64,000 bases of DNA from Desulfobacteraceae bacterium RAAP-1 (GCA_001443525.1 LKPX01000006.1:47-64046), one strand, 5' to 3'. Numbered from the stretch's first letter, positions 451-47,004 are shown. Made by a program: numbers and translations. The notes: generated by a model not told the origin, from the letters alone.

Positions 451-2352
451 TCAACCACCTGCCTTTTGCTGCTGAAGTTGAAGCTCTTTCTGGTGAATTG
501 CGGCATCCATCGCTGCCAGCGTCTCTTTTTTCCCTTGAAACCAGTTACTGACGTTCTGTGCATAAAAACTTCTGATATCCCGCGCATAGCTTGGTCCCAC
601 CAGAATATAAAATTGGAATAAATTATTCAAAATCAAAGGGTTACTCAAATCTGAAAACCGTTTAGTACCCACTTCGGCAGTCAACGCTGCAGGGGGAAGA
701 CTTGGAATGACAGATTTATTGATCAGTACAGCCGCACATTTATCAAAATAAATCAGTTTCCAGTCCGGTGATTTCAGAAACCAGAAAATAACATCGCTTC
801 TCCACATTCCGATCAAGGCGATTTTGAACGGATATTTGGTTGTCAGATATTTAAAGTTGGCTTCATTTAAATTCCCCGTAACTGTCAGCCAGTCCGGAAG
901 CACTTCTTTGATATAGGGACCAGATCTGGGGTCAATCCAGACCTTGTATTCCGGATACATGGTCCACATCATATAGCCGCCCAGCAGATAATCGTTAAAA
1001 ACAGGCCCCGGCAGGTGATATCGCTTAATGAATTGCACTTCTTTTTTGGGGAAATAATCATCGAAATGATACCCCAGCCATGTAGCATATGGCATGGTGA
1101 TCACCATCAGATAAAGACTATACACGGCTGCAAACGCAAATATTCCCATAAAAAATGGTGTCAGCTTGCGTTTAATATCCCATAAATCAGCCTCTGCCAT
1201 CAGCGTATAAATACTGTAACACCAGACAACCGGGAAAAACAGCGTAGCGCGAGCCGCTTTCATGCTGAGATAAAAAAAAGCGATATTGAGAAGCAGCACG
1301 GGGATGTTGAGGCGACGTGTCCTGTGAATCGCTATCAGGCTGAAGATCACAAGCAGTACCCCCATGAACACTATAACATCCGCTGCATTGACAAAGTTAT
1401 AATTCTGCATGTGAAATCCGATATAATTCCACATGCTCAGTACTGACACATTGGCTTTGCTGACAGGATCCCGCTCCGTCAACCAGACCTTAATAATGGA
1501 AATCGGATACCGGATACCGTCCGGATTGATTATTGTGACCGCAAACGACACAAGGATGCTTGTTCCAAAGGGTATCAAAACGTTTTTGAGTTTGTCATAA
1601 TTTTTATAGATGATCGCTGCAATCAATTCACCTGTAAAAGCAACACTCAAAAATGCCAATCCCACCATAAACTCTCCGTGAATATTGACCCAGAGAAGGA
1701 ATATAACGGGATACAGAAAAAAACGTCCTGTTTTATAATTCTGTTGTCGAGTGGAATTGAAGTAGAGAAAAACCGTTACGGAAAACAGCAACGTGCTTAT
1801 CATCTGGGGCTTGAGATAAACCTGGGTGAGCTTCAAAACTATGGCGGTCAGCATCAAGCTCATAATACGGAATAAATCCAGCCGGTCGTGCAGTAATCGG
1901 GCATACTGGGCAATCATCAGGAGTACGGCAATCAGTATCAACCACTGCATGACGCACAGCCCGCTGATGCCCCCCAGTTCATAGACAAGATACATCGCTG
2001 AACTTCCCAGCCAGGTGCCGTAAATCCAGTCCGTTACATCCACCGGTGTCCATGAAAACTGCGACTGATCGATGTGCCATGTCAGATGGGTGACATATTG
2101 TTTGCCATATGCCAGATGAAACCAGATATCATTATCATCTCCATAATTCGGAAAAATAGCTATGACAGTTATCACCAATAAAATAAGTGATATCCATATC
2201 GCCCAATTATTTTCGGAGATATCCCGGAACTGATTTATCAGAAACTCCATAAAGGATGGATATTGATGAACGACCACCCTGGTGTTACGGGAAATTCTTT
2301 TAAGATTATTGTCTGGATTTTTGGATATTTTTGTCGCCACGTCGATAATCAT
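451..2352 (-). CDS. Polytopic membrane protein, GT-C-fold glycosyltransferase-like (ArnT/PMT/STT3-type architecture)
   Basis: 633-aa ORF with many hydrophobic segments. An acidic GDDND motif lies directly after the first TM (WISLILLVITVIAIFPNYGDDNDIWFHL), the position of the catalytic acidic motif in GT-C enzymes. It has a soluble C-terminal region. The family call is pattern-based only. Confidence 0.45.
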   Translation of the reverse strand: MIIDVATKISKNPDNNLKRISRNTRVVVHQYPSFMEFLINQFRDISENNWAIWISLILLVITVIAIFPNYGDDNDIWFHLAYGKQYVTHLTWHIDQSQFSWTPVDVTDWIYGTWLGSSAMYLVYELGGISGLCVMQWLILIAVLLMIAQYARLLHDRLDLFRIMSLMLTAIVLKLTQVYLKPQMISTLLFSVTVFLYFNSTRQQNYKTGRFFLYPVIFLLWVNIHGEFMVGLAFLSVAFTGELIAAIIYKNYDKLKNVLIPFGTSILVSFAVTIINPDGIRYPISIIKVWLTERDPVSKANVSVLSMWNYIGFHMQNYNFVNAADVIVFMGVLLVIFSLIAIHRTRRLNIPVLLLNIAFFYLSMKAARATLFFPVVWCYSIYTLMAEADLWDIKRKLTPFFMGIFAFAAVYSLYLMVITMPYATWLGYHFDDYFPKKEVQFIKRYHLPGPVFNDYLLGGYMMWTMYPEYKVWIDPRSGPYIKEVLPDWLTVTGNLNEANFKYLTTKYPFKIALIGMWRSDVIFWFLKSPDWKLIYFDKCAAVLINKSVIPSLPPAALTAEVGTKRFSDLSNPLILNNLFQFYILVGPSYARDIRSFYAQNVSNWFQGKKETLAAMDAAIHQKELQLQQQKAGG

Positions 2353-2422
2353 CCCGGCAGTTGGTTCTTACATTTTTCAGGTTCAAACAGCCTGTAATCG
2401 CGCATCATATACGTTATTCCAT

Positions 2423-2462
2423 AAAAAAGGGGGAGGACAACCCTGCTCCCCCCCCCTTTTTT
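2423..2462 (-). terminator. Rho-independent terminator downstream of the 2500-3954 gene (symmetric, possibly bidirectional)
   Basis: A6, then GGGGGAG (2429-2435), a 10-nt loop, CTCCCCC (2446-2452), CCC and T7. On the minus strand the GC stem is followed by a T-run. Confidence 0.6.
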
Positions 2463-2499
2463 CCTATAGATTCACTACAGTACTATATGAGCATGTTCA

Positions 2500-3954
2500 T
2501 TACTGCATCAAATAAGTACTGCCTGCTGCTTTATACAGCGGCATCTGCCGGTCGTTTGCTGATGACCTCTTGAAGAAGGAAACACCATTGACCATGCTTG
2601 GCGGCGCGGTGATGGTGAATCGTGCGGCATAAGAAGTGCCGTACGCAAGTCCAGCAGCCGTACCAATTGTTGAACCCCAATACATACCTGCTTCATTAGG
2701 TGGAATTGTGCCCAATGAGAGGGTTTGAGATGCTGATCCATCTGCCGGGAACACTTCCACGGACACGCTGGCGGTTTGTGTTGAGTTGTTATAAAAGCGG
2801 TTGAAAATGTCAACCGTCTGATCGGCGGTACCCACATACATATACGGGTTAAACGCCTGATATGCATTAACATTCCAAGTCTGGAAGGTTTGGTTGGACT
2901 GACCGGCAGGAGCGATGCCTGTCGAACTTGCGGCATAAGAATACGATCCAGTGATGGTTCTCGCATCCAAAGCAGTATTGCCGGAAACCTGAATGCAAAT
3001 CGTTGAATTTATTGAACCAGCAGATGTCAAATTTGCAGCGAAAACAGCAGTCGGGCTCAAAGAAACCGTACCGGACGGAGCATTGTTTGCAGCAATAACA
3101 GTCCCTGTACAGTCAGCATTGTTGGTTGTAAAAATCTTGGATACGCCTTTCCAGCTCGCACTATCCGTCAGGCTGACAGACTGGGTAAAATTAGCACTTG
3201 CAGGAACATTTACAGATGTTATAGCAACATCAATTTTGTTAAGGCTCGCCGCTATTAAATTACCCGAACCGTTACCCGTCACAAACTTTTTTCCGTCTGA
3301 GGAACCATTGGTATTGTTCAGATAATCGATTGTAATCAGATCGGCCGCACTCAATGTGGACGTAAATTCTTTAACAACCTGCACCGCATTGGCTGCCGCC
3401 GAGGAGTCTATCACAATACCACCTGAACTCCACACAGCACCTGAAATCGTATAACTGCCAACGGAAGTATTTGCAGGAACATTAAGGACCACATTTGGAG
3501 ATAAGCCACTGCATGCAACGCTGCTCAAATATACCAGGCTGTTGGCAGTAACGTTGGCAGTCGCCTGAATATTAAAATCAGTGGCGCCCGCAGTCGGAAC
3601 TCCATATCCGACATTAATTGCGTTGCTCTTTTTACTATCCGTAGAATTTGTACACAGGTACAGCGTTTCAGCCGCAGGAAAATTTATCCCGCCGCCCAAC
3701 GTAATATGAAATAAGTTGCCATTGGTCAAATTCTGCCCCAACAAATAGCTGACAGGAACATTGGCAGCATCAACAGCATCAGTGGCAGTAGATGAGAGCG
3801 TAACATTCGCGGCAGCTCCCAAACCCTCATAAGCCACCGTAATCGGCATATTCGTAACCCCTCCGTAAGATACAACGGTCTGCCCGGCCAACGCCGGAGC
3901 AGCCATCAGCCCCAAAACACAAAATACAGCTAAAACCATTTTGATCTGCTTCAT
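2500..3954 (-). CDS. Secreted S/T/N/A/G-rich protein of unknown family (candidate cargo / surface glycoprotein)
   Basis: Sec-type signal peptide MKQIKMVLAVFCVLGLMAAPALA/GQ. AGGAGG lies 5 nt upstream of the ATG (3960-3965, minus). I count 14 N-x-S/T sequons. There is no prepilin motif and I recognise no family. Confidence 0.8.
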   Translation of the reverse strand: MKQIKMVLAVFCVLGLMAAPALAGQTVVSYGGVTNMPITVAYEGLGAAANVTLSSTATDAVDAANVPVSYLLGQNLTNGNLFHITLGGGINFPAAETLYLCTNSTDSKKSNAINVGYGVPTAGATDFNIQATANVTANSLVYLSSVACSGLSPNVVLNVPANTSVGSYTISGAVWSSGGIVIDSSAAANAVQVVKEFTSTLSAADLITIDYLNNTNGSSDGKKFVTGNGSGNLIAASLNKIDVAITSVNVPASANFTQSVSLTDSASWKGVSKIFTTNNADCTGTVIAANNAPSGTVSLSPTAVFAANLTSAGSINSTICIQVSGNTALDARTITGSYSYAASSTGIAPAGQSNQTFQTWNVNAYQAFNPYMYVGTADQTVDIFNRFYNNSTQTASVSVEVFPADGSASQTLSLGTIPPNEAGMYWGSTIGTAAGLAYGTSYAARFTITAPPSMVNGVSFFKRSSANDRQMPLYKAAGSTYLMQ

Positions 3955-4213
3955 TTTTTCCTCCTGAATTGGTTATCATTTTAACTAAATATAATGATGA
4001 ATCACAGCCATCCTGAACCTGTAAACCTATCACCTCCCTTGCAATATGATTATTCGGTTAAAAAACATTGGCCGCACAGAGGCTTGTTCTGTTTTTATAA
4101 CAATATCCCCAAAAGTCAAGCCAATTTTCTTTTATTAGACTATGGTTTCATGGTTTGGCTTATCATACTTTACCACAGCAATCAATACAAAAAAGAGGTG
4201 ATTTTCCTGAAGA

Positions 4214-6016
4214 CTACCGCCTGGCCAAAATCTCCGCTGCTTTACGCAAATATTTTTGTTCTTCCGCCTTATCGCCACTGGCAGCATAAAACCGGCTGGC
4301 AACCACCTCATACCGCAAATATTCCGGCGCGCGCGCCACCTGACTTTCAACAGCTTTCTTGGCCATTTCAAAAAACGCATGCCGAATATCCGGCGGGACA
4401 GAAGACGCATTCATTTTCGGCGCCACATCAACAAGCCGCTCCACAACCTCTTCGCGTCCCAGTGAAAGATTGTGTGAAAGCGCCTGTTCAAAATCAGACA
4501 ACGCTCCCAGCGGATTACCGGCTGCCACAGCACGCTGTGCATCTATTAAAGACCAGCCTGTTTGAAAGGCCGTCCAGTTGAACGCATAAAGAAAAAATGC
4601 AAGCCCGACTACAACAGCCGTATCAAAAGCCCCCGCATCTCTGACACTTGCCTCTTTCATATCCGTCTGAATGTGCTGCCGCCCCCCTGTGGATTTAAAG
4701 TGAATAAACCCCAGAACCAACATGAAATACGTATAGCTTACCACCGTGTCAAATGTAAAGAGATTATGGAAAAAATATACAGCCAGAAGCCCTGAAAAGA
4801 GTGCTTTCTCAGTATGCGACACGTTGGATATTTTCCTCCAGAGCAGCCACAGCGACGCCGCAAAAAGCGACAAATATGCCAGCAACCCCAGAATGCCGCC
4901 TGAAACAAGCCAGTCGAGAATGATGTTATGGGCACGGTCCGCCCACCCGTTTGTAAAATGCAAATCATAATGGGCGCTGAATGCATCATTAAATCCCTCC
5001 TGCCCCCACCCCAACACCGGATGATCTGCAATAGCCCGCAGCGCTATGGGCCAAATAAACTGACGTCCATCATCATTGGACCAGGATATGTTGGCAAAAC
5101 GCGACAGCACGGGGCTGTTTTTGACAACCGCCGTATTCCTGAAAGCTATAAAAACAGCCGCCACAACCCCTGCTGTTACAAACACATATGGCGATATTTT
5201 CTTTTTCCATGATCTTTGACGGCCTGTCATGTCCATGAGTGCGAGAAACAGCAAAAATCCGCCCCAAAATCCCAGTATCGCCCCACGCGTCGCTGTGCAA
5301 TAAAGCACAACCATGTTAAGCACCATGGCAATAACAGACAGCAAACGGTGTAAGACATTGCCCTTTCGCACGCACAGCAGCATAGCAAAAAAAATATTGA
5401 AAATGAGATAAATGGCAAGATATGCCGAATTGTCGAAGGTAGCATCAATACGGCCGTAGATTTGCGGCTCCCTGATCAGACCAAACCGCTGAAGCGCCGG
5501 ATAGTGCATCATCACAAGCTGAAAACCGCCGCAGAGCGACATCAAAACACTGGCGCTCACCGAACATATCCAATACCGTTCCCAGAGCCTTTCGGAAAAC
5601 AGCGTACCGGCTATCAGAAAATAAAAAAACAGATGCAAAAGGGTGATATACCCCTCCATCCTTTCAAAATTCGACCAGAAGCTTTTCCAGGGATTGACAC
5701 CACAGATATCGGCAATCCCAATCACCACCAGAAACCCAATAAAAGCCCAGAGCAGTATCGACCGCCTCGGCCTTGCCGACACATCGCGTACAGTCAGCAA
5801 CAGCCACGCCGCGAATCCGATCTCAATCACAATTCTGAAAAAAAAATTCTTTCCGGTTACAAAAGGAAACGGCAACGAATTTGTAACAATAAACGGTGCT
5901 ATCAGGGTGGCAAAGATTGCGGATACGGCAATCCATCGAAGCACCTTGTCAAAGGTCACACCGGAAAACCGCGGCTGCATGGAAACAGCATTTACATGCG
6001 GCTGCGGTTTTTTCAT
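4214..6016 (-). CDS. O-antigen ligase / Wzy_C-type polytopic protein with a C-terminal soluble helical (TPR-like) domain; possible O-oligosaccharyltransferase
   Basis: 600 aa and many TMs. The motifs DNSAYLAIYL, CTATRGAILGF and HPVLGWGQEGF resemble O-antigen ligase/PglL-type proteins. Its ATG overlaps the secretin stop (ATGA at 6013-6016). Confidence 0.6.
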   Translation of the reverse strand: MKKPQPHVNAVSMQPRFSGVTFDKVLRWIAVSAIFATLIAPFIVTNSLPFPFVTGKNFFFRIVIEIGFAAWLLLTVRDVSARPRRSILLWAFIGFLVVIGIADICGVNPWKSFWSNFERMEGYITLLHLFFYFLIAGTLFSERLWERYWICSVSASVLMSLCGGFQLVMMHYPALQRFGLIREPQIYGRIDATFDNSAYLAIYLIFNIFFAMLLCVRKGNVLHRLLSVIAMVLNMVVLYCTATRGAILGFWGGFLLFLALMDMTGRQRSWKKKISPYVFVTAGVVAAVFIAFRNTAVVKNSPVLSRFANISWSNDDGRQFIWPIALRAIADHPVLGWGQEGFNDAFSAHYDLHFTNGWADRAHNIILDWLVSGGILGLLAYLSLFAASLWLLWRKISNVSHTEKALFSGLLAVYFFHNLFTFDTVVSYTYFMLVLGFIHFKSTGGRQHIQTDMKEASVRDAGAFDTAVVVGLAFFLYAFNWTAFQTGWSLIDAQRAVAAGNPLGALSDFEQALSHNLSLGREEVVERLVDVAPKMNASSVPPDIRHAFFEMAKKAVESQVARAPEYLRYEVVASRFYAASGDKAEEQKYLRKAAEILARR

Positions 6017-8220
6017 TTTGCGTCCTCCACCGTAATCGCCTCAAAATTCCGCATGATCGCCGAACGCATATCCTCGATCTGCTCCGGACTGCGGATAATG
6101 CGCGGGGTGATCATGACAACCAGCTCCGTCCGGTTTGTCGTTTTGGCGGTGCTTCTGAAGAGATTCCCCAGAATCGGAATATCGCCCAGCCACGGAATCT
6201 TTGTGACACCGTCCGTATTGTTCTCCTTGATCAATCCTCCCAGCATCACCGTCTGCCCATCGGCGGCCACCACTTCCGTGGTCAGATTGCGGTTTGAAAT
6301 CATCGGGGAATCAATGCCGGAGGTGGTATTGGGCGTGGCGTCACTGACGCCCTGCGTCAACTGCAGGGTCAGAACCCCCCGGGAATGCACCGTCGGTGTA
6401 ACATTGAGGGTGATACCGGTTGTCATATACTGATATGAGCGCACCAGTCCGGTCGTCGTGGTGGTGGTCGTGGCGGTGGCCACATCACCGGTCACCACCG
6501 GTACCTGGGTGCCGACCACGATGCTGGCGGATTTTCCGTCCCGAACCGTGATGCGCGGGCTGGAGAGTATTTTAAGCTTGCTGTCCGTCGCCAGCGCACT
6601 GATCATCAAACTGAATGACTTGGAGGAATTCAGCACCGAATAATCAAGGCCGCCTCCAAAATTTTTGGTTGAACCGTTCAGTATGTTCAATGTGCCGGTC
6701 AGATCTCCCCCGTGCTCGATGTACCATTCCAGCCCGTACTTGAGATTGCCCGACAGCGTCACCTCCGCCACCGTCGCCTCCAGCAGCACCTGGGCAGGCA
6801 TCACATCGATCTGTTTGAGCAGCGACTCGATGATTCTATAATACACCGGCGTGGTGTAAATAACCAGGGCGTTGCGATTGTCATCCACCGTCACCGAAAC
6901 GTGATCCACAATACCGGCCATATTGGACGAAATGGCGCTGCTCCCGGTTCCGGAGTTGGCGGACGTTGCGTCGGAAGTCTTTTCAGCAGATGTGGACGGC
7001 AAAACAGTGGTCTGCCCCATTTGCAGCCCCTGCGCTGTTTTGACGGCTGACTTTGTGTTTTTTCCCGAAGAGGTGTCCGCCTTGGTTTTGGGAGTAGAAA
7101 TCCCCATAATGTTCTGGAGGGTTTCACACAAATCCTTCGCCCGGCTGTTTTCGGGGAAATAGATAAAAAACCGATTATCCACCTTGTCTTCCGGAATATC
7201 CAGCGTTTTAATCCAGTATGTCAGACGATTCAGCCATTCTTTCTGGGCGGAAAACGCCAGAAGGATCCGCCACCTGTCAATCGGAATCAGCCGCAGCCCC
7301 CCGTCTGCTCCGCCTGCCACCGGAATGCCTTCCTGTGTCAGAATTTCTTTAAGCTTTGGCACCAGCTCTTTGGTATCCCAGTATGCTACTTTGAACATAA
7401 CTCCATATTTGCCGCGCATGGCCGGCCGGTCCATCGCACCGATAAGCTGCAGCGCCTGCAGCACACTTTCCCGCGCGCCCTGAACCACCAGAACATTTTC
7501 GTTCTGCATGGCATACACCGTCAACCCCGGCGTGTTCAAGAGCATCTGCACCAGTGTGCCGGCCATGGCATATCGAATCGGCACGAGCTGACGAATCTGC
7601 CCCGAAGTATCCGGAACATCCGTATAAGCGGAACCGATACCGATTTCAACACCTTGCTGCGGTGTGCCGGGTACAATATAATATACGCCGCCTTTTTCCC
7701 GGATAACCGTATTGTACCCGGCCAGAATATCCGACACAATGCCATAGAGTTTCTGCTTGGTCACCCGGTCTTTCAGATTGAGACTCAACTTCTCCTGGCC
7801 CGGCACCTTGCTGTCCAGCACATAATTGACGTTCAGCAGATCATTAAATACATAATGTATGAAATCTGACAGTTGAATAGTATCCACCGACACCGTCACT
7901 TCTTCGGTCGGGCTGAAACGGTTTTTTAAATCCGGCAGCTTTCTGATGCCCGAATTGTCGGAAATCGGCGGAATCAGCGTCGTGTGGGTTCCCGCCTCCG
8001 GGAGATTCGCCCCCTGCAACCCCGATAGGGGGCCGGACGGCGTCCCGGTCACTTCTTCTTCGGCCTTAACCGGCTTGTTATAGACATCCAGCTTGATTTT
8101 TTCCTTCGGCGGTATGGCGCAGGAAACGGTTATCAATACCAAACTCAACAGCATCGGAAGCCGGGCAGCCCCCCATGCCAATTTCAACGCACTTACAGCA
8201 CGATACATCGCTTTTGTCAT
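6013..8220 (-). CDS. gspD: Secretin (GspD/PilQ family outer-membrane channel)
   Basis: The C-terminal secretin domain is unmistakable: ILSSPRITVRDGKSASIVVGTQVPVVTG...ITLNVTPTV...NRNLTTEVVAADGQTVMLGGLI...IPWLGDIPILGNLFRS...ELVVMITPRII. The N-terminal signal ends in VSC, a possible lipobox. Confidence 0.92.
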   Translation of the reverse strand: MTKAMYRAVSALKLAWGAARLPMLLSLVLITVSCAIPPKEKIKLDVYNKPVKAEEEVTGTPSGPLSGLQGANLPEAGTHTTLIPPISDNSGIRKLPDLKNRFSPTEEVTVSVDTIQLSDFIHYVFNDLLNVNYVLDSKVPGQEKLSLNLKDRVTKQKLYGIVSDILAGYNTVIREKGGVYYIVPGTPQQGVEIGIGSAYTDVPDTSGQIRQLVPIRYAMAGTLVQMLLNTPGLTVYAMQNENVLVVQGARESVLQALQLIGAMDRPAMRGKYGVMFKVAYWDTKELVPKLKEILTQEGIPVAGGADGGLRLIPIDRWRILLAFSAQKEWLNRLTYWIKTLDIPEDKVDNRFFIYFPENSRAKDLCETLQNIMGISTPKTKADTSSGKNTKSAVKTAQGLQMGQTTVLPSTSAEKTSDATSANSGTGSSAISSNMAGIVDHVSVTVDDNRNALVIYTTPVYYRIIESLLKQIDVMPAQVLLEATVAEVTLSGNLKYGLEWYIEHGGDLTGTLNILNGSTKNFGGGLDYSVLNSSKSFSLMISALATDSKLKILSSPRITVRDGKSASIVVGTQVPVVTGDVATATTTTTTTGLVRSYQYMTTGITLNVTPTVHSRGVLTLQLTQGVSDATPNTTSGIDSPMISNRNLTTEVVAADGQTVMLGGLIKENNTDGVTKIPWLGDIPILGNLFRSTAKTTNRTELVVMITPRIIRSPEQIEDMRSAIMRNFEAITVEDAK

Positions 8221-8297
8221 TTATCGCTCATTTTAGCAACAGATTGCCATATCAATATGTTATTTCGCCATACCCTGCGGCGGGGTAAAAAATGGAA

Positions 8298-8882: not shown

Positions 8883-8897
8883 TAATCAGCGGACTTT

Positions 8898-9021
8898 GAC
8901 GACTTCGTAAAAAGCCCGCATGCTGCGTTGCGCTGCATCCTTCGTCGTTGCGGCGCACCCAAAGTACGCCTCACTCCTCAGGCTTTGCGCGCCTTGCCTG
9001 CGAACTTTTTACAAAGTCGTC
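8898..9021. mobile_element. MITE/REP-like palindromic element, full-length copy 1 (most diverged)
   Basis: GACGACTTCGTAAAAAGCCCGCATGCTGCGTTGCGC...GCGCGCCTTGCCTGCGAACTTTTTACAAAGTCGTC. It has terminal inverted repeats and aligns along its whole length to the copies at 18665 and 21789. It abuts the stop codon of the 9022-9945 gene. Confidence 0.8.
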
Positions 9022-9945: not shown

Positions 9946-9987
9946 GAATACCCCCTTATTTCGGAAAAAGAAGCTGCCGATACAGGG

Positions 9988-11071: not shown

Positions 11072-12222
11072 TTTTTACCATTGAATTCAAAACTCAATAT
11101 AAACACATCCCGCCCCGTCTTGTTTTCTTTCCGCACCGGAGAAATAAACTGAGCGTTCTGTATTCCCTGGGTCTGGGATAACACCGTCAACAACGCCGTT
11201 GCGCTGGGCGCCTGGCCATGGATTTCCACACGTGTGTCTGAAATGGCCATCTGGGTAATGCGGGTTTCCGCAGGCATCACCTTTTGCAGCAGCGTCATGA
11301 GCAGATATTTAGACACATACGCATTGATCGGAGCCGCAAGAGCTTTCTGCTTTTTGATTGCCATATCTATCTGACGCTGCTTTTCAATCCATTCAACGCT
11401 TTGCGCCGAAACAGCGGCTTCTTCTTTTTGAAGATGCTTTTCAACCGCATAGGGAATAGATACCGTCAGGAGCGTATATATCACAAAAAGAGCGGCCGCG
11501 CTATAACCTCCCCGTTTCAGCGCGCGGGAGTCCAGCGTCATTGTATAGGGGTTTGCATTGATAAACGGATACAGCCCATTAACGGGCAGACTGCCAATGG
11601 TTTCAGACAAAAACGCGGCATAGTCTTTCAAACCCGTTATCCGGACCACCGGACTGCCGGTGGCGTCCTTTCCAATAATCCTGCGAAACGCTTCCACATC
11701 CATGGTATCGCCGCCTGAACGGACACTTTGAACCGCTCCGTTTTTTCCGATCCATGCCAGAAAAGAATGAAGCCCCAGTGCGACCTCGTAAATCTGAGAT
11801 GTCTGACAGGCATGAAAGGCCAGGAGGGCTGTTTCCGGAATGACCAGAGAAACAAGCTGTTTTTCCATAATCTGTGCGGCTTCAGATGAAATAAGCCAGA
11901 TATTGGCCGCAGCGCCGTCTCCGGTTTGATGCAGTTTCCGGACACAGCACCGTGTTGAAGGAAACGGCGTATAGTCGTTTTTATCCAGCAGCACGGCTGA
12001 TTTGATTTCCTTAGCCCGGGTGAAAGGAAAATGCCTGATGGTTTCAAAATAATGCATCTTTCCCAGCACCATGACCCGTGCATCACGGATATCCTTTTCG
12101 GATGCAGTCTCACACGCTCCCCTGCCATCCATCGTCAGAATCTGATCGCCCACATACAGAATCCGGCCGGCCAGCCACCGGGTCACATACTTTCCCAGAT
12201 GTATCGATTCCATTTCAATCAA
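11068..12222 (-). CDS. GspL-like (PilM-PilN fusion-like) assembly-platform protein
   Basis: A cytoplasmic domain of roughly 235 aa, one TM (YSAAALFVIYTLLTVSIPYAV) and a periplasmic PilN-like domain. It lies between the GspK and GspM-like genes. Confidence 0.55.
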   Translation of the reverse strand: MIEMESIHLGKYVTRWLAGRILYVGDQILTMDGRGACETASEKDIRDARVMVLGKMHYFETIRHFPFTRAKEIKSAVLLDKNDYTPFPSTRCCVRKLHQTGDGAAANIWLISSEAAQIMEKQLVSLVIPETALLAFHACQTSQIYEVALGLHSFLAWIGKNGAVQSVRSGGDTMDVEAFRRIIGKDATGSPVVRITGLKDYAAFLSETIGSLPVNGLYPFINANPYTMTLDSRALKRGGYSAAALFVIYTLLTVSIPYAVEKHLQKEEAAVSAQSVEWIEKQRQIDMAIKKQKALAAPINAYVSKYLLMTLLQKVMPAETRITQMAISDTRVEIHGQAPSATALLTVLSQTQGIQNAQFISPVRKENKTGRDVFILSFEFNGKK

Positions 12223-12266
12223 TCCGCTCTATCCTCATGCACCTGCATCCGTATCTCCCCCGAAAC

Positions 12267-13181
12267 CTATCGCTTCCATTCCAGCACCATATACGGCCGC
12301 AATCGGGTTTCACGCTTGTCGATCACGGCTTCGATCCTGTCGATGGCCTTGTTCTGCTGCGCTGTCACATTCACCTTGACGAGGCTGGAAGGCCCGAACA
12401 TAACGGTGTCGCTGCGCTGGATACCCGTCAGCCCCCTAAAATAGCTTCCGGTCAATGTGTGTTCACTGCGCATCTTCAACAGGGCGGCAACGGTTTTATC
12501 GTTTTGCAGCAGCCCCTGAAGCAGCCTGGGGCTCATGGTCAAATAATTGATGTGATCGCTTCCCCAGTATGTAAGATCACCCCGGACAGCATCAAACAGC
12601 GAACTGTCAAACCCCATGATCAGACGGATTTCATCAACCGTCTGAATATAAAAATTCCGCGGCGCATACGGATACCCGGCCGCCTCGTAATCCCACGCTT
12701 CCGCGCCATTTAAATGTTTTAAATCATCGCGATCCTGCCAATCCGCCAGTTTATCCATGAATGAATTGATTTCCGATGTCGTTGCGGAGGTTCCAGCCAG
12801 AAGCGCCGCCAGATATCGGGGCTGCGTCACCGGAGACACCATGCCGGCCACATCCTGAAGCCGGACCGACACCGAATCATCCAGCGCGATCGGCTCTCCG
12901 TAAAGATTCCAGATTTTCCACTTGCCGTCCGGCAGGTAAATCTTGATGCCCGTCGATGTGAAATTGGACGTCAGGATGTTATATATCGTCTCGTTCATGG
13001 CCGAATACGATTTGAGTCGCGCCAGGCCCTGGTCTCTTAATTCGGAAATAACGGCGATTTTATGACGCATCGAAAAAGCAATGCTGAGCGTCATGATCAT
13101 GATAATCATGGAAATGGCCATCACCATCGGCAGCGCATATCCTTTCTGATTCATGATAACGGATGCACCCTGAGCTGACAT
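12267..13181 (-). CDS. gspK: Minor pseudopilin GspK-like
   Basis: Hydrophobic N-terminus KGYALPMVMAISMIIMIMTL without Glu5. GspK-type core DWQDRDDLKHLNGAEAWDYEAAGYPYAPRNFYIQTVDEIRLIMGF. Confidence 0.75.
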   Translation of the reverse strand: MSAQGASVIMNQKGYALPMVMAISMIIMIMTLSIAFSMRHKIAVISELRDQGLARLKSYSAMNETIYNILTSNFTSTGIKIYLPDGKWKIWNLYGEPIALDDSVSVRLQDVAGMVSPVTQPRYLAALLAGTSATTSEINSFMDKLADWQDRDDLKHLNGAEAWDYEAAGYPYAPRNFYIQTVDEIRLIMGFDSSLFDAVRGDLTYWGSDHINYLTMSPRLLQGLLQNDKTVAALLKMRSEHTLTGSYFRGLTGIQRSDTVMFGPSSLVKVNVTAQQNKAIDRIEAVIDKRETRLRPYMVLEWKR

Positions 13182-13915
13182 CAGAACTCTCGCTGAAAAA
13201 AAGGCGCCTTGAACGGGTTCAGCGCCTTGACCGGCAGTGTCATCACCGTATCGCCGGAGTCGCTGGATATGGTCATTTCAATGATTTCAGGAACCGCTTT
13301 CCGGTCTTTTCCATAATATTCCGTCAGCCAGCGGTACTCGGCCTCAAAATCCATGGTCGCATCGTTGAAATGATAGGTCCACACCCCGTAGTAACGGATA
13401 TGAAACGCCTTCACGTTCTCAAACAAGACGATCTGGTGCGCATACTCCGGAACGCTGTCTTCATACCGGATATACTGGTGCAAAAGCGGTGTCTCCTCAT
13501 ATACCAGATTCCGGGCGCCGGATTTGGTTTCAACCAGACGGATCCGGGCCGACGCGGAAATCCCCTGTTCAAAAACCGATGACAGTGTGACAAACGCCAC
13601 GGAATGGTCCGTCCCGATAAAATAGGGATAATGAACACCGTTAAGTTCACTGGTCGGATCCGTAACGTAATAGTCACAGATGGATTCCACCGCATCGCGG
13701 CACAGGATATGATTCCGGTACAGCTCCAGCGATCGCGTGTCCGACAGCCTGCCCTTGCGCCATGACTCGCCGAAAAACGAGTATGCGGTCAGTGCCAGAT
13801 AAATCATGAGGGTCAGGATCGTTGTCGCCACCAGGACTTCGATCAGGGTGAAGCCCCGTTCATCATCTGCGGCAGCGGCCTGTTGAGCTGCACGGCCTGC
13901 GTATTCTGAAAACAT
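13181..13915 (-). CDS. Prepilin-type N-terminal cleavage/methylation domain protein (GspJ-like pseudopilin)
   Basis: Motif ERGFTLIEVLVATTILTLM. The only in-frame start gives a 20-aa leader and a 73-nt overlap with the upstream gene. Confidence 0.7.
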   Translation of the reverse strand: MFSEYAGRAAQQAAAADDERGFTLIEVLVATTILTLMIYLALTAYSFFGESWRKGRLSDTRSLELYRNHILCRDAVESICDYYVTDPTSELNGVHYPYFIGTDHSVAFVTLSSVFEQGISASARIRLVETKSGARNLVYEETPLLHQYIRYEDSVPEYAHQIVLFENVKAFHIRYYGVWTYHFNDATMDFEAEYRWLTEYYGKDRKAVPEIIEMTISSDSGDTVMTLPVKALNPFKAPFFQREF

Positions 13916-14343
13916 GCCAGTTCCTGATATTCGTAGGGAAATACGTGCTCCTTGCCGTTCGATGTGCGGGTGAGTTTCACCGTTACGGTTTTCATCGCCA
14001 CATCGAACCGGCCATACTCCATGCCGCCTGTCGTCTCGCTGAACTCGCTCAGGATGTCGGGCGACGACTTGGTTTCAACGGCGGACCATTCATAGGTGAT
14101 GTTCGGCCCGTAATGCCCGCTTCCCTTGTTCTCGTGGTTCGACAGATCGGCCTTGATATTTTCAACGATGGACGGCAGCGCATCCGAAGCAGCGATAACC
14201 GCCGCAGACTTGTCGATGACACGAACAGACGCCCTGTGCGCCACAGCCCCGATCACCAGCGCCGCAAACAGGATAACCGCGGCAATGATGACCTCAATGA
14301 GGGTAAAGCCGCGCGAATCTCGTAAAACACCGGACAGCATCAT
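13843..14343 (-). CDS. Prepilin-type pseudopilin (GspI-like)
   Basis: Motif SRGFTLIEVIIAAVILFAAL. I moved the start to the ATG at 14341-14343 (MMLSGVLRDSRGFTLIEV), directly after the upstream stop at 14345-14347. The longer ORF-track start at 14442 would overlap the upstream gene by about 100 nt. Confidence 0.7.
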   Translation of the reverse strand: MMLSGVLRDSRGFTLIEVIIAAVILFAALVIGAVAHRASVRVIDKSAAVIAASDALPSIVENIKADLSNHENKGSGHYGPNITYEWSAVETKSSPDILSEFSETTGGMEYGRFDVAMKTVTVKLTRTSNGKEHVFPYEYQELACFQNTQAVQLNRPLPQMMNGASP

Positions 14344-14344
14344 C

Positions 14345-14737
14345 TTACCACACGCCATCGGAGCCGTTTTCCATCGTTTTGGCATCGGAGCTGCCGGCAG
14401 CCAGATACCGTATCTGCCGCAAATCTGCAAAGCCGTGCCCATTCACCGTGTATTCCTGAGGCGGAAACGTGATATACGCAAAATCAACCTGTCCCCCGCC
14501 GTCTTTTACCAGAAAGACATTGCGGTCCAGCTTGACCGTATAGGCGGTGTCGCGGAAAAAGGCTTTCATCCGGACATCCGACAGAAGGTCAGACAGCCTG
14601 CGTTCTTCCACCGTAACCTTGAAATTTTCATACGATCGAATCATGTTGGGCGTAACCAGTGAAATCCCCAGCGCCGCGATGGCCATCACCACCAGGAGCT
14701 CTATCAGCGTAAAGCCATGATCAGAAGTTGATGTCAT
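14345..14737 (-). CDS. Prepilin-type pseudopilin (GspH/GspG-like)
   Basis: Motif DHGFTLIELLVVMAIAALGISL. I moved the start to the ATG at 14735-14737 (MTSTSDHGFTLIELL). Confidence 0.7.
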   Translation of the reverse strand: MTSTSDHGFTLIELLVVMAIAALGISLVTPNMIRSYENFKVTVEERRLSDLLSDVRMKAFFRDTAYTVKLDRNVFLVKDGGGQVDFAYITFPPQEYTVNGHGFADLRQIRYLAAGSSDAKTMENGSDGVW

Positions 14738-15938
14738 TGACCGATACGATACTGAGCAGCATGACCACCACCACCGAACCGACAATCAGCCCCATGACCA
14801 GAATCATGACCGGTTCCAGCAGGGTGATCATGCCGTTGAGCCGCTGCTCGTAATTGTCTTTGAAACGGTTTTCCATATCCGTGAAAATTTCCATCAGATT
14901 GCCGGTCTGCTCGCCCACCTCAATGACACCGATGTAAATATCCGGCAGAAAACCGGTTCTGGCAAGGGATTCACTCAGTTTTTTACCCTGCCGGACATCA
15001 TCGCGGGCGGATTGCAGCTGCTTCTGAAGCCGATGATTACCGACGGAGCGAATGGCATAATTGAGCGCGTCCACCAGCAGAACACCGCTTTTCAGCAAAA
15101 TCGCCATCGAGGAGACGAAGCGGAGATTTTCGAGGGCATAGGACAGATACCGCAGCACCGGGATTTTGATCAGGAGCATATCCACCGCCACCCTGATGAA
15201 ATAGATCCGTTTCATCTGCCGGAGCCACAGGGGAATTCCCACCACCAGCGCCAGTATCCACCACTGATACTGCGTAAAATAGCGGCTGGCCGTCAGAAGG
15301 ATGCTGGTATAAACGGGCAATGACTTCATCCCGGCGAACAGCACTTCAAACTTGGGCACAACAAAATTAAAAATAAACACGATGGACATCACGCACACCA
15401 TGAAAATCACGGCGGGATAAATCAGAGCCTGCTGCGTTTTGGCGCGGAGATTCTTGCGAAACGCCAGACTCAGCGCAATCTGCCCGAACGCATCAGCCAG
15501 TTTTCCGGTCGCCTCGCCGATGGAAGCAATGCTGATATACATGGGGTCGAAAATATCCGGAAATTTTTCCAGTGCGCGGGAAAGGGGCAGCCCGGACCGG
15601 ATATCATTATGAATCTGCGTCGCCGCCCGCTTGAATTTCAAATTGCGGATGGTCTTGACGGTGGTTCCCAGCGCCTTGTCCACCCGGATGCCGTTTTTCA
15701 GCAGCAGCGACATCTGGGATGAAAAAAACTCGACATCCGACAGCCCGGGTTTGATACGTTGAAATATCCGGAACTGAAGCGATATTCGCGTCTCCAAAGC
15801 GGACGGGGATTCCAGCTTTATCGGAACCAGCCCCAGCTCCTTGATTTTTGACTGCGCGGACGCGAGGTTGACCGCCGATATTTCGCCCTGACGCCTGACG
15901 CCCGACGAGTCATATGCCGTGTAATTGTACTGCTGCAT
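14721..15938 (-). CDS. gspF: Type II secretion / type IV pilus platform protein GspF/PilC family
   Basis: 405 aa with the duplicated T2SSF architecture, three TM regions and the typical C-terminus LLEPVMILVMGLIVGSVVVVMLLSI. It shares 1 nt with the gspE stop. Confidence 0.9.
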   Translation of the reverse strand: MQQYNYTAYDSSGVRRQGEISAVNLASAQSKIKELGLVPIKLESPSALETRISLQFRIFQRIKPGLSDVEFFSSQMSLLLKNGIRVDKALGTTVKTIRNLKFKRAATQIHNDIRSGLPLSRALEKFPDIFDPMYISIASIGEATGKLADAFGQIALSLAFRKNLRAKTQQALIYPAVIFMVCVMSIVFIFNFVVPKFEVLFAGMKSLPVYTSILLTASRYFTQYQWWILALVVGIPLWLRQMKRIYFIRVAVDMLLIKIPVLRYLSYALENLRFVSSMAILLKSGVLLVDALNYAIRSVGNHRLQKQLQSARDDVRQGKKLSESLARTGFLPDIYIGVIEVGEQTGNLMEIFTDMENRFKDNYEQRLNGMITLLEPVMILVMGLIVGSVVVVMLLSIVSVNDINF

Positions 15939-17620
15939 CAGCCCGCTACCCGCAGAACCTCATCAAGGGTAGTAACCCCTTTGATACATTTTAAAAATCC
16001 ATCTTCAGAAAGATTCCGGATCCCGGCCTCAGACATGTACCGCTTGGCTTCCATGGGAAACGCGGAATTTTTGGGAAGCATCTTGATTTCCGGCGTGCAC
16101 CGCAGATATTCCATGATGCCCACCCGGCCCTTGTAACCGGTATGGTTGCAGGAAGGGCACCCGACCGCCGTCTTGATCTCGATTTTATCCACATGATATT
16201 TTTCCGCAATCGCATCCAGCGCGAATGTTTCAATGGCCGCGCTGTCGGAATCGGCGGGCGCGGCGCAGTCCGTACAGAGCTTTCGCACCAGCCGCTGGGC
16301 GATGACCGATATCATGGAAGAGTTGATCAGATATTCCTGAAGGCCCAGATCGATCAGACGCGTGTAGGCCGTCGGCGCATCGTTGGTATGGAGCGTACTG
16401 AACACCAGATGCCCGGTCAGTGACGACTGCATGGCCACGCGCGCGGTTTCGGAATCCCGGATTTCACCGATCATGATGACATCCGGGTCCTGACGCAGAA
16501 TACTGCGCAGCGCCGTCAAAAAATCATAACCGATATCATGCTGCACCTGAATCTGGTTGATGCCGTTCAGCCGGTATTCCACCGGATCTTCGATGGTAAT
16601 GATCTTTTTATCTTCGCTGTTGATGCTGTTCAGACAGGAATAGAGCGTCGTGGTTTTGCCGCTGCCCGTCGGCCCGGTCAGAAGAATAACGCCTGCTGTT
16701 TTCAGAATATCCTGCTGGAGCATCCCGTTTAAATCCGACTCGATTCCCAGATAATCCAGATTGTAGCTGATGGATTCTTTCACCAGAAAGCGCAGAACGA
16801 GGCTTTCCCCTTCGGCAAGCGGCAGCGTGGAGACACGGATGTCAATGTCTTTGGATGAAACCTTCATGGATATCTGGCCATCCTGCGGCTTTCTTCTTTC
16901 GGCGATATCCATGCCCGACAAAATCTTGATGCGGGATGCGATGGGAAGCTGCATGTTGAGCGGCAGAAAATCGATGTCGTGCAGCATGCCATCAATACGA
17001 AACCGCACCCGGTACATGTTTTTGAACGGCTCGAAATGAAGATCGGAGGCGCCCCGCGTGATGGCGCGGGATATCAGCGTATTCACCAGATTGACGATGG
17101 GCGCCTCGGAAGCCAGCTCCCGCAGCTTATCGACCTCGGCATCCATAAAATCGGACAGTTCCAGAGACGCCATGTCATCCATCTGCCGGGAAGCGTCATA
17201 TTCGCCCTGAAGCTCGCGAAACTGGGATTCCGTGGTCAGAATCGTCTGCCAGGAAACCCCGATATCCCGCAGATACTGAACCACTTCATACTGCAACGGA
17301 TTGACGGCGGCGAACACGATGACACCGGAAGCCCTGTACAAGGGCAGCCAGTTGCGCTGAACCAAAAAAGGATAATTCAGCTTTTCGATGAGCTGCGACG
17401 GTTGAAAATCGAGGCGGCTGCGATCGATATCCGGAAACAGGCCGACTTTCAACTGCACCGAAAGCGCGGATACCAGTGTTTCCTCACTGACAATGCCCAT
17501 GTTCATCAGGATCGAACCGATCAGGCCGCCATATTTATCCTGAAATTTCAATGCCTTTTCAACATCGACCGGTGTTACGCCGTATGATTCCACCAAGATC
17601 TCGCCCAGCAGCATGAACAT
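15938..17620 (-). CDS. gspE: Secretion ATPase GspE/PilB/MshE family with an N-terminal T2SSE_N (MshEN-like) domain
   Basis: Walker A LLTGPTGSGKTTTLYS, Walker B/Asp box IMIGEIRD, a His box, and a C-terminal tetracysteine (CTDC...CPSC). Confidence 0.93.
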   Translation of the reverse strand: MFMLLGEILVESYGVTPVDVEKALKFQDKYGGLIGSILMNMGIVSEETLVSALSVQLKVGLFPDIDRSRLDFQPSQLIEKLNYPFLVQRNWLPLYRASGVIVFAAVNPLQYEVVQYLRDIGVSWQTILTTESQFRELQGEYDASRQMDDMASLELSDFMDAEVDKLRELASEAPIVNLVNTLISRAITRGASDLHFEPFKNMYRVRFRIDGMLHDIDFLPLNMQLPIASRIKILSGMDIAERRKPQDGQISMKVSSKDIDIRVSTLPLAEGESLVLRFLVKESISYNLDYLGIESDLNGMLQQDILKTAGVILLTGPTGSGKTTTLYSCLNSINSEDKKIITIEDPVEYRLNGINQIQVQHDIGYDFLTALRSILRQDPDVIMIGEIRDSETARVAMQSSLTGHLVFSTLHTNDAPTAYTRLIDLGLQEYLINSSMISVIAQRLVRKLCTDCAAPADSDSAAIETFALDAIAEKYHVDKIEIKTAVGCPSCNHTGYKGRVGIMEYLRCTPEIKMLPKNSAFPMEAKRYMSEAGIRNLSEDGFLKCIKGVTTLDEVLRVAG

Positions 17621-17632
17621 CCACTTCCTGTT

Positions 17633-18526
17633 TTACCGTATATTCATGACATTTCGGCGCTTCAGCCGCACCCCGTTCATGACCCACTCCGCTGACAGCC
17701 GGATGATCCCCCCGGATATTTTTTTATTGAAACGCAGCGATGTCCACAAGGTGACCGGCAGCACCGCGACAACATGCCCCAGCGGACAGCGCTCCGGATG
17801 AAACCCTTTTTCTTCGGCCATGACACGGGCATAGCCCGCCACCCATCTGTCCGGCACATGCCCCAGTTTCTGCGCCAGCATGACCAGCATTTCCCGGTGC
17901 GCCGGCATCCGCATGGCCACGGTCTTGGTTTCCGGATGCACCCGCGACCCCGCCAGAATGAAGGGCAGACGGACAAAACAGACCCCACCCAGCGCCAGCC
18001 GCAGCCAGAATTCATAATCCATGCAGTAAATCAGCTTTTCATCCAGAAGTCCATATTTTTCAACAACCCTGCGCCTGAAGAAAACCGCGGGCTGGCACAG
18101 ATAGCAGATGTCACGGAGGCGGCGGACATTCCATGGTTCGGTGGGATAAAGGCCGATAACTTTATTACGGGGATCAATGAGACAGGCATCACCATACACG
18201 ATATCCGCCTCTGGATTTTTCTCAAAAAAATCCTCAACCCGGGCAAGCGCTCCGGGACAGTAGATGTCATCGGAATTGAGCCAGCCGATGATATCGCCGA
18301 CAGTGCGCGCAATCCCCTTGTTGACCGCATCCGCCTGCCCGTGGTCCTTTTCGGATATCCACTGAAACCTGCGCCGGTATCGTTCCAGGATATCGATGGT
18401 GTCATCTGAACTGCCGCCATCCACAACCATCAGCTCGACTGAAACGCCTTCCTGGGACAAGACACTGGCCAGTGTCCGCTCGATATAACGGCCCTGATTG
18501 AATGAAGGAATAATGACAGAGATCAT
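17633..18526 (-). CDS. Family 2 glycosyltransferase (GT-A fold)
   Basis: MISVIIPSFNQGRYIERTLASVLSQ...MVVDGGSSDDT...SEKDHGQADAVNKG. It is the first gene of the secretion operon, 12 nt upstream of gspE. Confidence 0.85.
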   Translation of the reverse strand: MISVIIPSFNQGRYIERTLASVLSQEGVSVELMVVDGGSSDDTIDILERYRRRFQWISEKDHGQADAVNKGIARTVGDIIGWLNSDDIYCPGALARVEDFFEKNPEADIVYGDACLIDPRNKVIGLYPTEPWNVRRLRDICYLCQPAVFFRRRVVEKYGLLDEKLIYCMDYEFWLRLALGGVCFVRLPFILAGSRVHPETKTVAMRMPAHREMLVMLAQKLGHVPDRWVAGYARVMAEEKGFHPERCPLGHVVAVLPVTLWTSLRFNKKISGGIIRLSAEWVMNGVRLKRRNVMNIR

Positions 18527-18600: not shown

Positions 18601-18664
18601 TATCGATTTTGATCTGCAGATCCGCCATCATCATGGGCGTTGTCAAACAGATCGAATCAATTTT

Positions 18665-21758: not shown

Positions 21759-21788
21759 TCCGAAAAGCCGTCTGAAAAATCGACTCTT

Positions 21789-46963: not shown

Positions 46964-47004
46964 AATCCACATGACGGCGTCTGCACCGCAACAGCACAGG
47001 AACA

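Follow-up and report, generated by a model that had tools for sequence, protein, structure and literature searches.

A candidate S-layer biogenesis locus with a type II secretion operon, an Slr4-like protein, and an unannotated GT-C glycosyltransferase in a Desulfobacteraceae bacterium

Gene row, secretion system, and the Slr4-like protein

We analyzed a 64,000-nucleotide stretch of DNA from Desulfobacteraceae bacterium RAAP-1 (GCA_001443525.1, LKPX01000006.1:47-64046; hereafter, the window), in which a row of 16 genes at positions 451 to 18526 joins a type II secretion system (T2SS) operon to a gene for a Sec-exported protein of 484 amino acids (aa) and to several glycosyltransferase-like genes. 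All 16 genes are co-directional on the minus strand, with short gaps or overlaps between them (Table 1). Gene calls, together with the assignment of gene families by Pfam and NCBIfam profile searches, agree with the gene list, strand, and coordinates given in an earlier note that was made from the sequence alone, down to the ATGA overlap in which the start codon of the Wzy_C gene lies on the stop codon of the secretin gene.

Table 1. Features of the gene row and dispersed repeat sites in the window
Feature	Positions	Strand	Evidence
GT2 glycosyltransferase, soluble, first gene of the row	17633-18526	-	Pfam Glycos_transf_2 PF00535, E 7e-25
GspE/PilB-class ATPase with N-terminal MshEN domain, which binds cyclic di-GMP (c-di-GMP)	15938-17620	-	T2SSE 424 bits; MshEN
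GspF inner-membrane platform	14721-15938	-	T2SSF 182 bits; TIGR02120 291 bits
Pseudopilin, GspG/H-like	14345-14785	-	N_methyl E 7e-8 at residues 22-44
Minor pseudopilin, GspI/J-like	13843-14442	-	N_methyl E 2e-5 at residues 41-63
Minor pseudopilin, GspJ-like	13181-13915	-	N_methyl E 5e-7; weak T2SSJ and TIGR01711
GspK minor pseudopilin	12267-13181	-	T2SSK_1st E 2e-13; NF037980 E 7e-14
GspL-like assembly protein, C-terminal PilN domain	11068-12222	-	PF05137 30.6 bits (cutoff 22.8)
GspM	10493-11071	-	T2SSM_b 24.8 bits (cutoff 21.7); NF040576 E 2e-10
GspC-like, weak match	9988-10503	-	NF041515 GspC_delta E 4e-4, under cutoff; position kept in L001
Two coiled-coil genes, non-core insertions	9022-9945 and 8298-8882 (span 8298-9945)	-	Palindromic repeat element between them
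GspD secretin, outer-membrane channel	6013-8220	-	TIGR02517 362.7 bits (cutoff 351.35); Secretin E 3e-48
Wzy_C polytopic protein, 600 aa, C-terminal helical tail, lineage-specific accessory	4214-6016	-	PF04932 E 4.6e-20, 149/149 positions
Putative own promoter region and long 5' untranslated region of the S-layer candidate gene	3955-4213	-	259-nt intergenic region
Slr4-superfamily S-layer protein candidate, 484 aa	2500-3954	-	Sec signal peptide, conserved C-terminal domain
Intrinsic terminator after the S-layer candidate gene	2423-2456	-	G+C-rich hairpin and T6, dG -28.1 kcal/mol, z -3.8
GT-C-fold membrane glycosyltransferase, unannotated, 633 aa, conserved partner of the S-layer candidate gene	451-2352	-	AlphaFold2 model and Foldseek
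Palindromic repeat sites	384-402, 8895-9026, 18662-18793, 21786-21917, 30153-30171, 46949-46967, 49826-49844, 56463-56481

The product of the 484-aa gene has an AxA-type signal peptide, and the gene is preceded by a strong Shine-Dalgarno sequence. The mature protein has traits found in S-layer proteins: it is acidic (pI 4.7), has a mass of 47 kDa, and is all-beta in its AlphaFold2 (AF2) model (predicted local distance difference test score [pLDDT] of 82.7), which contains three tandem beta-sandwich domains; in the family alignment, the N-terminal two thirds are variable, the C-terminal ~130 residues are strongly conserved, and four cysteines are conserved. A word-indexed homologue search with the protein returned 31 clusters, all hypothetical, and an exhaustive profile search among 1.84 billion representatives returned 158 clusters (E ≤ 1e-3), nearly all of ~470 to 550 aa; no match was obtained in a PDB sequence search. 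When the C-terminal domain is isolated, it matches the Slr4 family PF19526 (28.3 bits against a cutoff of 25; E 1.3e-6), 6 of 59 divergent relatives match Slr4 directly (best E 3.8e-16), and hhalign pairs the profile of the family with P0302, a protein that Pfam annotates as Slr4 (96.9% probability; E 1.6e-10; 34% identity over 152 columns).

In Pseudoalteromonas tunicata, Slr4 has been shown by experiment to be the S-layer protein; it forms a p4 lattice and is the organism's most abundant protein, and slr4 is found directly downstream of a T2SS operon that is conserved and apparently dedicated (PMC7821379, PMC11094555). The gene in the window likewise encodes a Sec signal peptide and stands directly downstream of a T2SS operon. 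Because of this context and of the homology to Slr4, the 484-aa protein is best read, from sequence comparison, as a distant S-layer protein of the Slr4 superfamily.

Its gene appears to form an expression unit of its own. The region between the Wzy_C gene and the S-layer candidate gene contains a TTGACT box and a GGGAGGTGATAG block, both conserved with the related loci L003 and L004, and AGGAGG precedes the ATG; across the loci compared (L003, L004, L001, and L012), the G-rich block GGGAGGTGATAG lies ~90 nt and the TTGACT box ~140 nt upstream of the S-layer start, an arrangement that suggests a long, possibly regulated 5' untranslated region. On the other side, the terminator that the earlier note had placed after this gene is supported by folding, and of 24 related loci, 22 have an equivalent hairpin and T-run downstream of the S-layer gene. 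An automatic consensus scan for promoters and terminators overlooked both elements, which were examined by alignment with relatives (promoter) and by folding (terminator). A separately promoted and strongly terminated unit of this kind would be typical of very abundant structural proteins.

The upstream operon encodes a T2SS that is divergent in part. The ATPase and GspF belong to their families by Pfam, yet both score under the GspE/PilB and GspF equivalog cutoffs, and the system is therefore of a divergent T2SS subtype. The c-di-GMP-binding motif NF053729 is present in the ATPase at 49 bits (cutoff 38), and a GspE with an MshEN domain is also encoded in loci L084 and L085. Pseudopilins of the prepilin type are represented by three open reading frames (ORFs) with N_methyl motifs plus GspK. 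For two of these ORFs, the true start is probably later than the one called: about 14737 for the GspG/H-like pseudopilin, whose homologue in L001, the closest full locus, has 129 aa, and about 14343 for the GspI/J-like one, with a homologue of 165 aa in L001. No prepilin peptidase GspO is encoded among the 16 genes of the row, and the remainder of the window was scanned for it only in part; GspO is often encoded away from the T2SS operon.

Conserved neighborhood and glycosyltransferase genes

Related loci were gathered by look-ups centered on the 484-aa protein, by a metagenome scan with the same protein (7 loci), and by a scan of GTDB species genomes centered on the 633-aa protein, and all were annotated with local hidden Markov models. 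In every locus with enough flank, a secretin gene lies 0.3 to 3 kb upstream of the S-layer gene, with T2SS genes further upstream. In about 20 distinct loci, a homologue of the 633-aa protein is encoded at a distance of 90 to 3600 nt from the S-layer gene and, in most cases, as the gene that follows it, and the order secretin, S-layer gene, terminator, GT-C gene was recovered in both the searches centered on the 484-aa protein and those centered on the 633-aa protein. These loci belong to Desulfobacterota (Desulfobacteraceae, Desulfatiglandales, and unclassified "Deltaproteobacteria") and Nitrospirota (Thermodesulfovibrionales, Dissulfurispiraceae, and others).

This synteny bears directly on the earlier note, which had proposed one machine serving one Sec-exported surface protein, with glycan genes attached, and had placed the secretin, the ligase-like Wzy_C protein, and the exported protein at its center. 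The idea of a single-protein machine gains support from the gene order in the ~20 loci. The trio that co-occurs across both phyla consists, however, of secretin, S-layer gene, and GT-C gene; the Wzy_C gene is confined to the window and its closest relatives (L001/L006, L002, L003, and L083) and is missing in about 16 other loci, so that neither the proposed trio nor a central role for the ligase-like gene is sustained.

The 633-aa protein, which the earlier note had described as a GT-C-like polytopic protein, has no match in Pfam, NCBIfam, or a PDB sequence search, and a Pfam search with 28 members of its family likewise returned nothing. Its AF2 model (pLDDT 87.7; predicted template-modeling score [pTM] 0.86) is the basis for the assignment: in Foldseek against PDB, the first match is AglB (3wak; E 2.4e-6; TM 0.48), and the order of matches runs from AglB (3wak, 7e9s) to human STT3A, the C-mannosyltransferase DPY19, and PglB and yeast STT3, with AftA, ArnT, and ALG9 at lower ranks. 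These top matches are all GT-C enzymes with a probability of 1.00, and TM is 0.43 to 0.48 for 3wak, 7e9s, 8b6l_I, 6gxc, and 6ezn. As modeled, then, the protein is a GT-C enzyme. In the first outer loop, D73-x-D75 is invariant in 18 sequences and D75 in 28; a first-loop D-x-D is common to many GT-C families and hence not specific. Other invariant motifs are W221-x-N223-x-H225-G, R368, and F-N-D454-Y455-x-x-G458, the last of which, as F/I-F-N-D454-Y455-x-x-G458, stands ~35 residues past the last helix, where PglB has WWDYG.

We considered whether the protein might be a true STT3/PglB and rejected this, as the resemblance is at the level of fold only. No similarity to Pfam STT3 (PF02516) or to PDB sequences was found, and hhalign gave the 633-aa family 1% against Campylobacter jejuni PglB and 3% against an 18-sequence PglB profile (the C. 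jejuni query was validated against PDB 3rce and 3aag and is 99% identical to database protein P0062). The WWD motif, strictly conserved in STT3 proteins (PMC10859629), is absent from the family, which has F-N-D instead.

With the 18-sequence alignment as query, the GTDB scan recovered at least 151 relatives of the 633-aa protein, of which 70 loci were kept. Loci with neither a secretin nor an S-layer gene also encode the family: they are found in the Syntrophaceae, Smithella included, and in Latescibacterota, Kiritimatiellia, Planctomycetota, and Acidobacteriota, and some members of the latter four groups are fused to TPR repeats; the S-layer-linked genes make up a few clades in a rough neighbor-joining tree of the family. 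In Smithella/Syntrophaceae (L025, L029, L031, L032, L036-L038, L040, L044, L046, and L048-L053), two to three tandem GT-C paralogues are separated by a ~245-aa GNAT acetyltransferase within sugar-nucleotide clusters, surrounded by DegT, ATP-grasp, aldehyde dehydrogenase, and radical-SAM genes and adjoining genes for FadL-like outer-membrane proteins.

Around the GT-C gene of S-layer loci, the sugar genes are of many kinds: NTP_transferase, dehydratase, DegT, AsnB, GNAT, radical-SAM, and WbpB/D/E-like genes, as well as PMT_2 with UbiA and an epimerase, or GtrA with a GT2. From their families, they would provide pathways for unusual sugars and polyprenyl-phosphate sugar donors. Downstream of the S-layer-linked GT-C gene, L008 (8683-13437; also L079) encodes a PMT_2-family second GT-C, a UbiA-family prenyltransferase, and an epimerase, and L004 (7380-13537) encodes PMT_2, GtrA, and GT2 proteins; both sets look like polyprenyl-phosphate-sugar donor pathways feeding periplasmic GT-Cs. 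In two distant Slr4-like loci, there is no GT-C gene. One of them (L084) runs from an MshEN-GspE to the secretin and the S-layer gene, followed by Wzm/Wzt genes, a pyruvyl transferase/GT9/GT2 fusion, and several GT2 genes homologous to the GT2 of the window; in the other (L088), the secretin is followed by a tandem pair of Slr4 genes and then by a polysaccharide cluster of the Wzy type that includes rml genes. The L088 paralogues, of 534 aa each, lie at 1930-5380, between the secretin and the pyruvyl-transferase-containing cluster. What stays constant from locus to locus is the combination of a T2SS with an Slr4-like protein and a glycan pathway of some kind.

We take the Wzy_C and GT2 genes to be accessory in this lineage. 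The Wzy_C protein has the expected Arg/His loop, with R244, R306, H349, and a D-R-A-H363-N motif invariant in four homologues; no subfamily model matched (a weak IctB match is far under its cutoff), a PDB sequence search gave no match, and its tail resembles TPR repeats only at a nonsignificant E of 0.19. A second GT2 glycosyltransferase (339 aa; 43918-44937, plus strand) is encoded in a housekeeping region 25 kb away from the cluster and could be a polyprenyl-phosphate sugar synthase supplying the GT-C.

The two coiled-coil genes look like insertions that stand outside the conserved system. Their place in the row is as the earlier note had listed it, but their membership of the system does not hold up: in L001, they are missing between gspC and the secretin, and similar genes lie elsewhere in that locus. 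Pfam and NCBIfam searches with them gave coiled-coil noise only. The gene at 8298-8882 contains 21-nt tandem DNA units (8523-8693) that encode DQRFQ-type heptads, and that at 9022-9945 contains 63-nt units (9499-9750). Two side observations concern relatives: six Nitrospirota loci (L013, L020, L027, L028, L030, and L033) have, between the S-layer and GT-C genes, a gene for a conserved ~160-aa signal-peptide protein that has no Pfam family and is absent from the window, and L003 has a HEPN/nucleotidyltransferase-type toxin-antitoxin gene directly after the GT-C gene (13692-14381). A HEPN/MNT insertion has been described among the genes that surround Slr4 in Cognaticolwellia mytili in the AnnoView paper (PMC11094555).

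A palindromic intergenic repeat is dispersed through the window, with 11 copies of the 19-mer GACTTTTTACGAAGCCGTC (≤3 mismatches; 0 expected by chance). Its three full copies, each of ~132 nt, have inverted 19-mer ends and form a long hairpin (dG -55 kcal/mol; z -6), and one of them (8895-9026) separates the two coiled-coil genes. An Rfam scan of the window, the repeat included, returned no match, and the element is, by its sequence and predicted folding, like a repetitive extragenic palindrome (REP) or a miniature inverted-repeat transposable element (MITE). We considered whether the inverted copies of the 19-mer at 384 and 18683 might be the ends of a mobile element around the cluster and rejected this, since they belong to this dispersed repeat. 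Divergent from the GT2/T2SS operon and flanked by two repeat copies is a gene (18897-21758, plus strand) whose 953-aa product carries a VWA domain at its C terminus, and a 151-aa ORF (22157-22612, plus strand) that matches a dehydrogenase E1 component domain in its first third only (positions 3-99 of 300) may be a gene fragment. The remaining window encodes RND efflux proteins, 2-oxoacid:ferredoxin oxidoreductases, Liv-type ABC transporters, and LigA and is ordinary anaerobe housekeeping.

Export, glycosylation, and competing explanations

We consider it probable that the locus serves S-layer biogenesis, with the 484-aa protein as a distant member of the Slr4 superfamily. In the proposed course of events, the protein would be expressed from a promoter of its own in a unit that the strong terminator closes off, an arrangement suited to a structural protein of very high abundance. 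On the strength of homology to Slr4 and of analogy with Aeromonas VapA, it would be exported by Sec and fold in the periplasm (it has the four conserved cysteines). The dedicated upstream T2SS would then move it through the GspD secretin. This export is probably tied to c-di-GMP, because the T2SS ATPase has an MshEN domain, as do those of L084 and L085, and such control would fit the role of Slr4 as a biofilm-matrix protein. In the subsequent assembly on the outer membrane, the conserved C-terminal domain would mediate lattice formation or attachment, the variable N-terminal two thirds would face outward, and the flanking sugar enzymes would supply the glycan partner of the layer, with the GT-C drawing, on the outer side of the inner membrane, on a sugar linked to undecaprenyl phosphate.

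Two readings that dispense with an S-layer were weighed against this one. If the 484-aa protein were a secreted adhesin or some other soluble T2SS substrate, its likeness to Slr4 would come down to a shared C-terminal beta-sandwich; we regard this as rather unlikely. Foldseek matched the protein to generic Ig-like adhesin and pilin domains at low TM (PrgB, BcpA, CfaE, and CupB6), only the C-terminal ~150 residues align with Slr4, and 47 kDa falls short of the about 57 to 59 kDa of P. tunicata Slr4, but proteins annotated as Slr4 match the profile almost from end to end (P0302, positions 13-476), the genomic context is the same as that of Slr4, a putative promoter of its own and a strong terminator are typical of a very abundant protein, and the family has a uniform length of about 500 aa. 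Secretin-dependent slime export has been proposed in cyanobacteria and myxobacteria and for Hps systems, and the T2SS-like machine might by the same logic export a polysaccharide made by the GT2, the Wzy_C protein (as polymerase), and the GT-C, leaving the 484-aa protein incidental. The requirement of secretins for slime secretion (PMC12475490), weak NCBIfam matches to Hps pseudopilin and glycosyltransferase models, and the presence of glycan genes inside the operon speak for such a machine; we nonetheless hold it to be very improbable, since the protein gene is the most constant neighbor of the secretin and is homologous to a proven S-layer protein, whereas the glycan genes differ between loci.

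Whether the S-layer protein itself is glycosylated is a separate matter, on which its N-x-S/T sequons turn out to be of no help. The earlier note had counted 14 of them and had taken the protein to be sequon-rich. The count is exact but lies only marginally over the 9.1 ± 2.5 expected from composition in a shuffle test (P ≈ 0.04), and 31 homologues together have 345 against 257 expected. The reverse motif S/T-x-N, however, occurs 292 times in the same homologues, and family-wide enrichment extends from N-x-T (1.44x) to N-x-V (1.4x) and N-x-A (1.24x); this pattern points to beta-strand periodicity in a protein rich in Asn, Ser, and Thr. The Campylobacter-type motif D/E-x-N-x-S/T is found once in 31 family proteins. 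In an alignment of 59 divergent sequences, N389 is the sole invariant column, with Ser or Thr at +2 in 25 of the 59 (35 of 59 if a neighboring Asn is counted), and is more likely structural, judging from this pattern. N-glycosylation as deduced from the sequons was therefore rejected, the enrichment not being sequon-specific and no sequon being conserved. As a caution on method, N-x-S/T counts in beta-proteins rich in Asn, Ser, and Thr are no evidence for N-glycosylation.

For the role of the GT-C, we lean tentatively, at somewhat under even chances, toward the view that it glycosylates the S-layer protein within the periplasm, ahead of export, and probably at Ser/Thr, not at N-x-S/T. This reading is slightly preferred because the GT-C gene is constantly adjacent to the structural gene, in contrast to the other sugar genes, all of which change, and because known enzymes whose genes adjoin that of a structural subunit modify that subunit. 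TfpO/PilO and the pilin-modifying GT-C TfpW are encoded beside pilA in Pseudomonas aeruginosa and modify that pilin. The Wzy_C O-oligosaccharyltransferases WsaB and WsfB are encoded beside S-layer proteins of Geobacillus and Paenibacillus and act on them (PMC2943079). A bolder version, in which the 633-aa protein is the founding member of a novel family of protein glycosyltransferases that face the periplasm, with a GT-C fold nearest that of N-oligosaccharyltransferases and motifs of its own, acting on the S-layer protein before the T2SS does, seems to us possible and on balance unlikely. Nearly as good as covalent glycosylation is a model in which the protein is unglycosylated and the GT-C, the Wzy_C protein (as a WaaL-type ligase), and the GT2 build or modify a surface lipopolysaccharide (LPS) or other polysaccharide that the C-terminal domain binds non-covalently; we give it roughly one chance in three. 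Aeromonas VapA and the S-layer protein RsaA of Caulobacter, both held non-covalently on O-antigen, are precedents. The same model is favored by the insertion of the Aeromonas A-layer T2SS and vapA in an O-antigen cluster (PMC4483657), by the pyruvyl-transferase-containing polysaccharide clusters of Wzm/Wzt or Wzy type that immediately follow the S-layer gene in L084 and L088, by the occurrence of the GT-C family in sugar clusters that have no S-layer gene, by fold matches that include ArnT and AftA, whose acceptors are lipids or polysaccharides, and by the lack of a sequon signal. Against it stand the constant position of the GT-C gene, the precedents of TfpO and TfpW and that of WsaB (PMC2943079), and best fold matches that are protein-modifying enzymes. 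The earlier note had made the Wzy_C oligosaccharyltransferase and the GT2 glycosylate a sequon-rich, non-pilin cargo ahead of T2SS export, in a new kind of glyco-secretion machine. The overlap of the Wzy_C start with the secretin stop, the position of the gene directly upstream of that of the cargo, the 14 sequons, and the action of WsaB and WsfB on S-layer proteins, with C-terminal TPR motifs in WsfB and PglL (PMC2943079), accord with this proposal. We judge it improbable, given that the Wzy_C gene is missing in most loci that keep secretin, cargo, and GT-C, that Wzy_C enzymes form O-linkages for which N-x-S/T sequons are irrelevant, that the sequons are neither specifically enriched nor conserved, that the TPR resemblance of the Wzy_C tail is not significant, and that Slr4 and VapA are known relatives, so that the machine is not of a new kind.

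Several observations weigh against an S-layer protein modified by the adjacent GT-C, and we set them together here. No solved S-layer was matched by the predicted structure of the 484-aa protein in Foldseek, the full-length protein has no Pfam match, and the Slr4 profile is reached by the isolated C-terminal domain alone and barely above the cutoff; the organisms are uncultured, and lattice formation is predicted from homology and context. On the side of the glycan, the GT-C family occurs in Smithella, Acidobacteriota, and others in sugar clusters that have neither an S-layer gene nor a secretin, and a 72%-identical GT-C gene (L007) has no S-layer gene in the 2.1 kb upstream of it on a 5-kb contig. 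The clusters that replace the GT-C in L084 and L088 fit an anchoring polysaccharide at least equally, and covalent N-glycosylation in particular is disfavored by the sequon results and by the absence from the GT-C of WWD and of similarity to STT3/PglB.

Relation to known S-layer and glycosylation systems

As an S-layer locus, the system would extend Slr4-type S-layers with a dedicated T2SS, described only in marine Gammaproteobacteria, to anaerobes whose envelopes are barely characterized, and its physical tie to an S-layer gene offers the first functional context for the unannotated GT-C family, with its at least 151 GTDB relatives. Should the GT-C indeed glycosylate the S-layer protein, it would represent a new class of protein glycosyltransferase, of use for glycoengineering, that could be tested simply with two genes, those of the S-layer protein and the GT-C, and the pathway would be the first in diderm bacteria to couple S-layer glycoproteins to type II secretion.

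The closest of the known enzymes in fold, STT3/AglB/PglB (GT66), share with the 633-aa protein the GT-C architecture of ~13 helices and a C-terminal soluble domain, the D-x-D of the first loop, and a conserved D-Y..G motif at the position of the PglB WWDYG; they differ from it in that the 633-aa family has no STT3 sequence match and no WWD and that the neighboring protein shows no sequon signal. In the TfpO/TfpW and WsaB/WsfB systems, as here, Wzy_C and GT-C enzymes flank a structural gene and would work in the periplasm with lipid-linked donors. The acceptor candidate of the window differs from that of TfpO/TfpW in not being a pilin, and the GT-C is likened to TfpW by gene position.

In Aeromonas, vapA/ahsA and an S-layer-specific T2SS (spsE-L and spsD) have been inserted among the genes of the O-antigen cluster (PMC4483657, PMC4413209). 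The gene layout resembles that of the window, with a dedicated T2SS beside a single gene for a ~49-kDa surface-array protein and glycan genes on both sides, but the Aeromonas glycan is an ABC-transporter-dependent LPS O-antigen, not known to be attached to VapA, and no GT-C has been described there. The likeness to the Slr4 system of P. tunicata and other marine Gammaproteobacteria is closer: a homologous protein with a Sec signal peptide, a gene directly downstream of a T2SS operon that ends in the secretin, and one machine for one abundant surface protein. The earlier note had known no closer analogy than pilin O-oligosaccharyltransferases encoded next to pilin genes; the placement of the protein in the Slr4 superfamily, and the dedicated T2SS operons that adjoin both Slr4 and VapA genes (PMC7821379, PMC4483657), speak otherwise.

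The differences from the Slr4 system lie in sequence, distribution, and gene content. The window protein is very distant, its full length falling under Pfam detection; reports of Slr4 cover a single phylum and no metagenomes but marine ones (PMC7821379), whereas loci of the window type are found in anaerobic Desulfobacterota and Nitrospirota from groundwater and freshwater metagenomes; and a GT-C gene (with Wzy_C and GT2 genes in this lineage) is attached, glycosyl genes being unmentioned in the Slr4 papers. Overall, the locus is, by sequence and gene order, a distant member of the Slr4/dedicated-T2SS kind that resembles the Aeromonas A-layer locus, and what appears to be new is that this kind reaches into two further phyla and into anoxic habitats outside the sea, together with its conserved coupling to an unannotated GT-C family.

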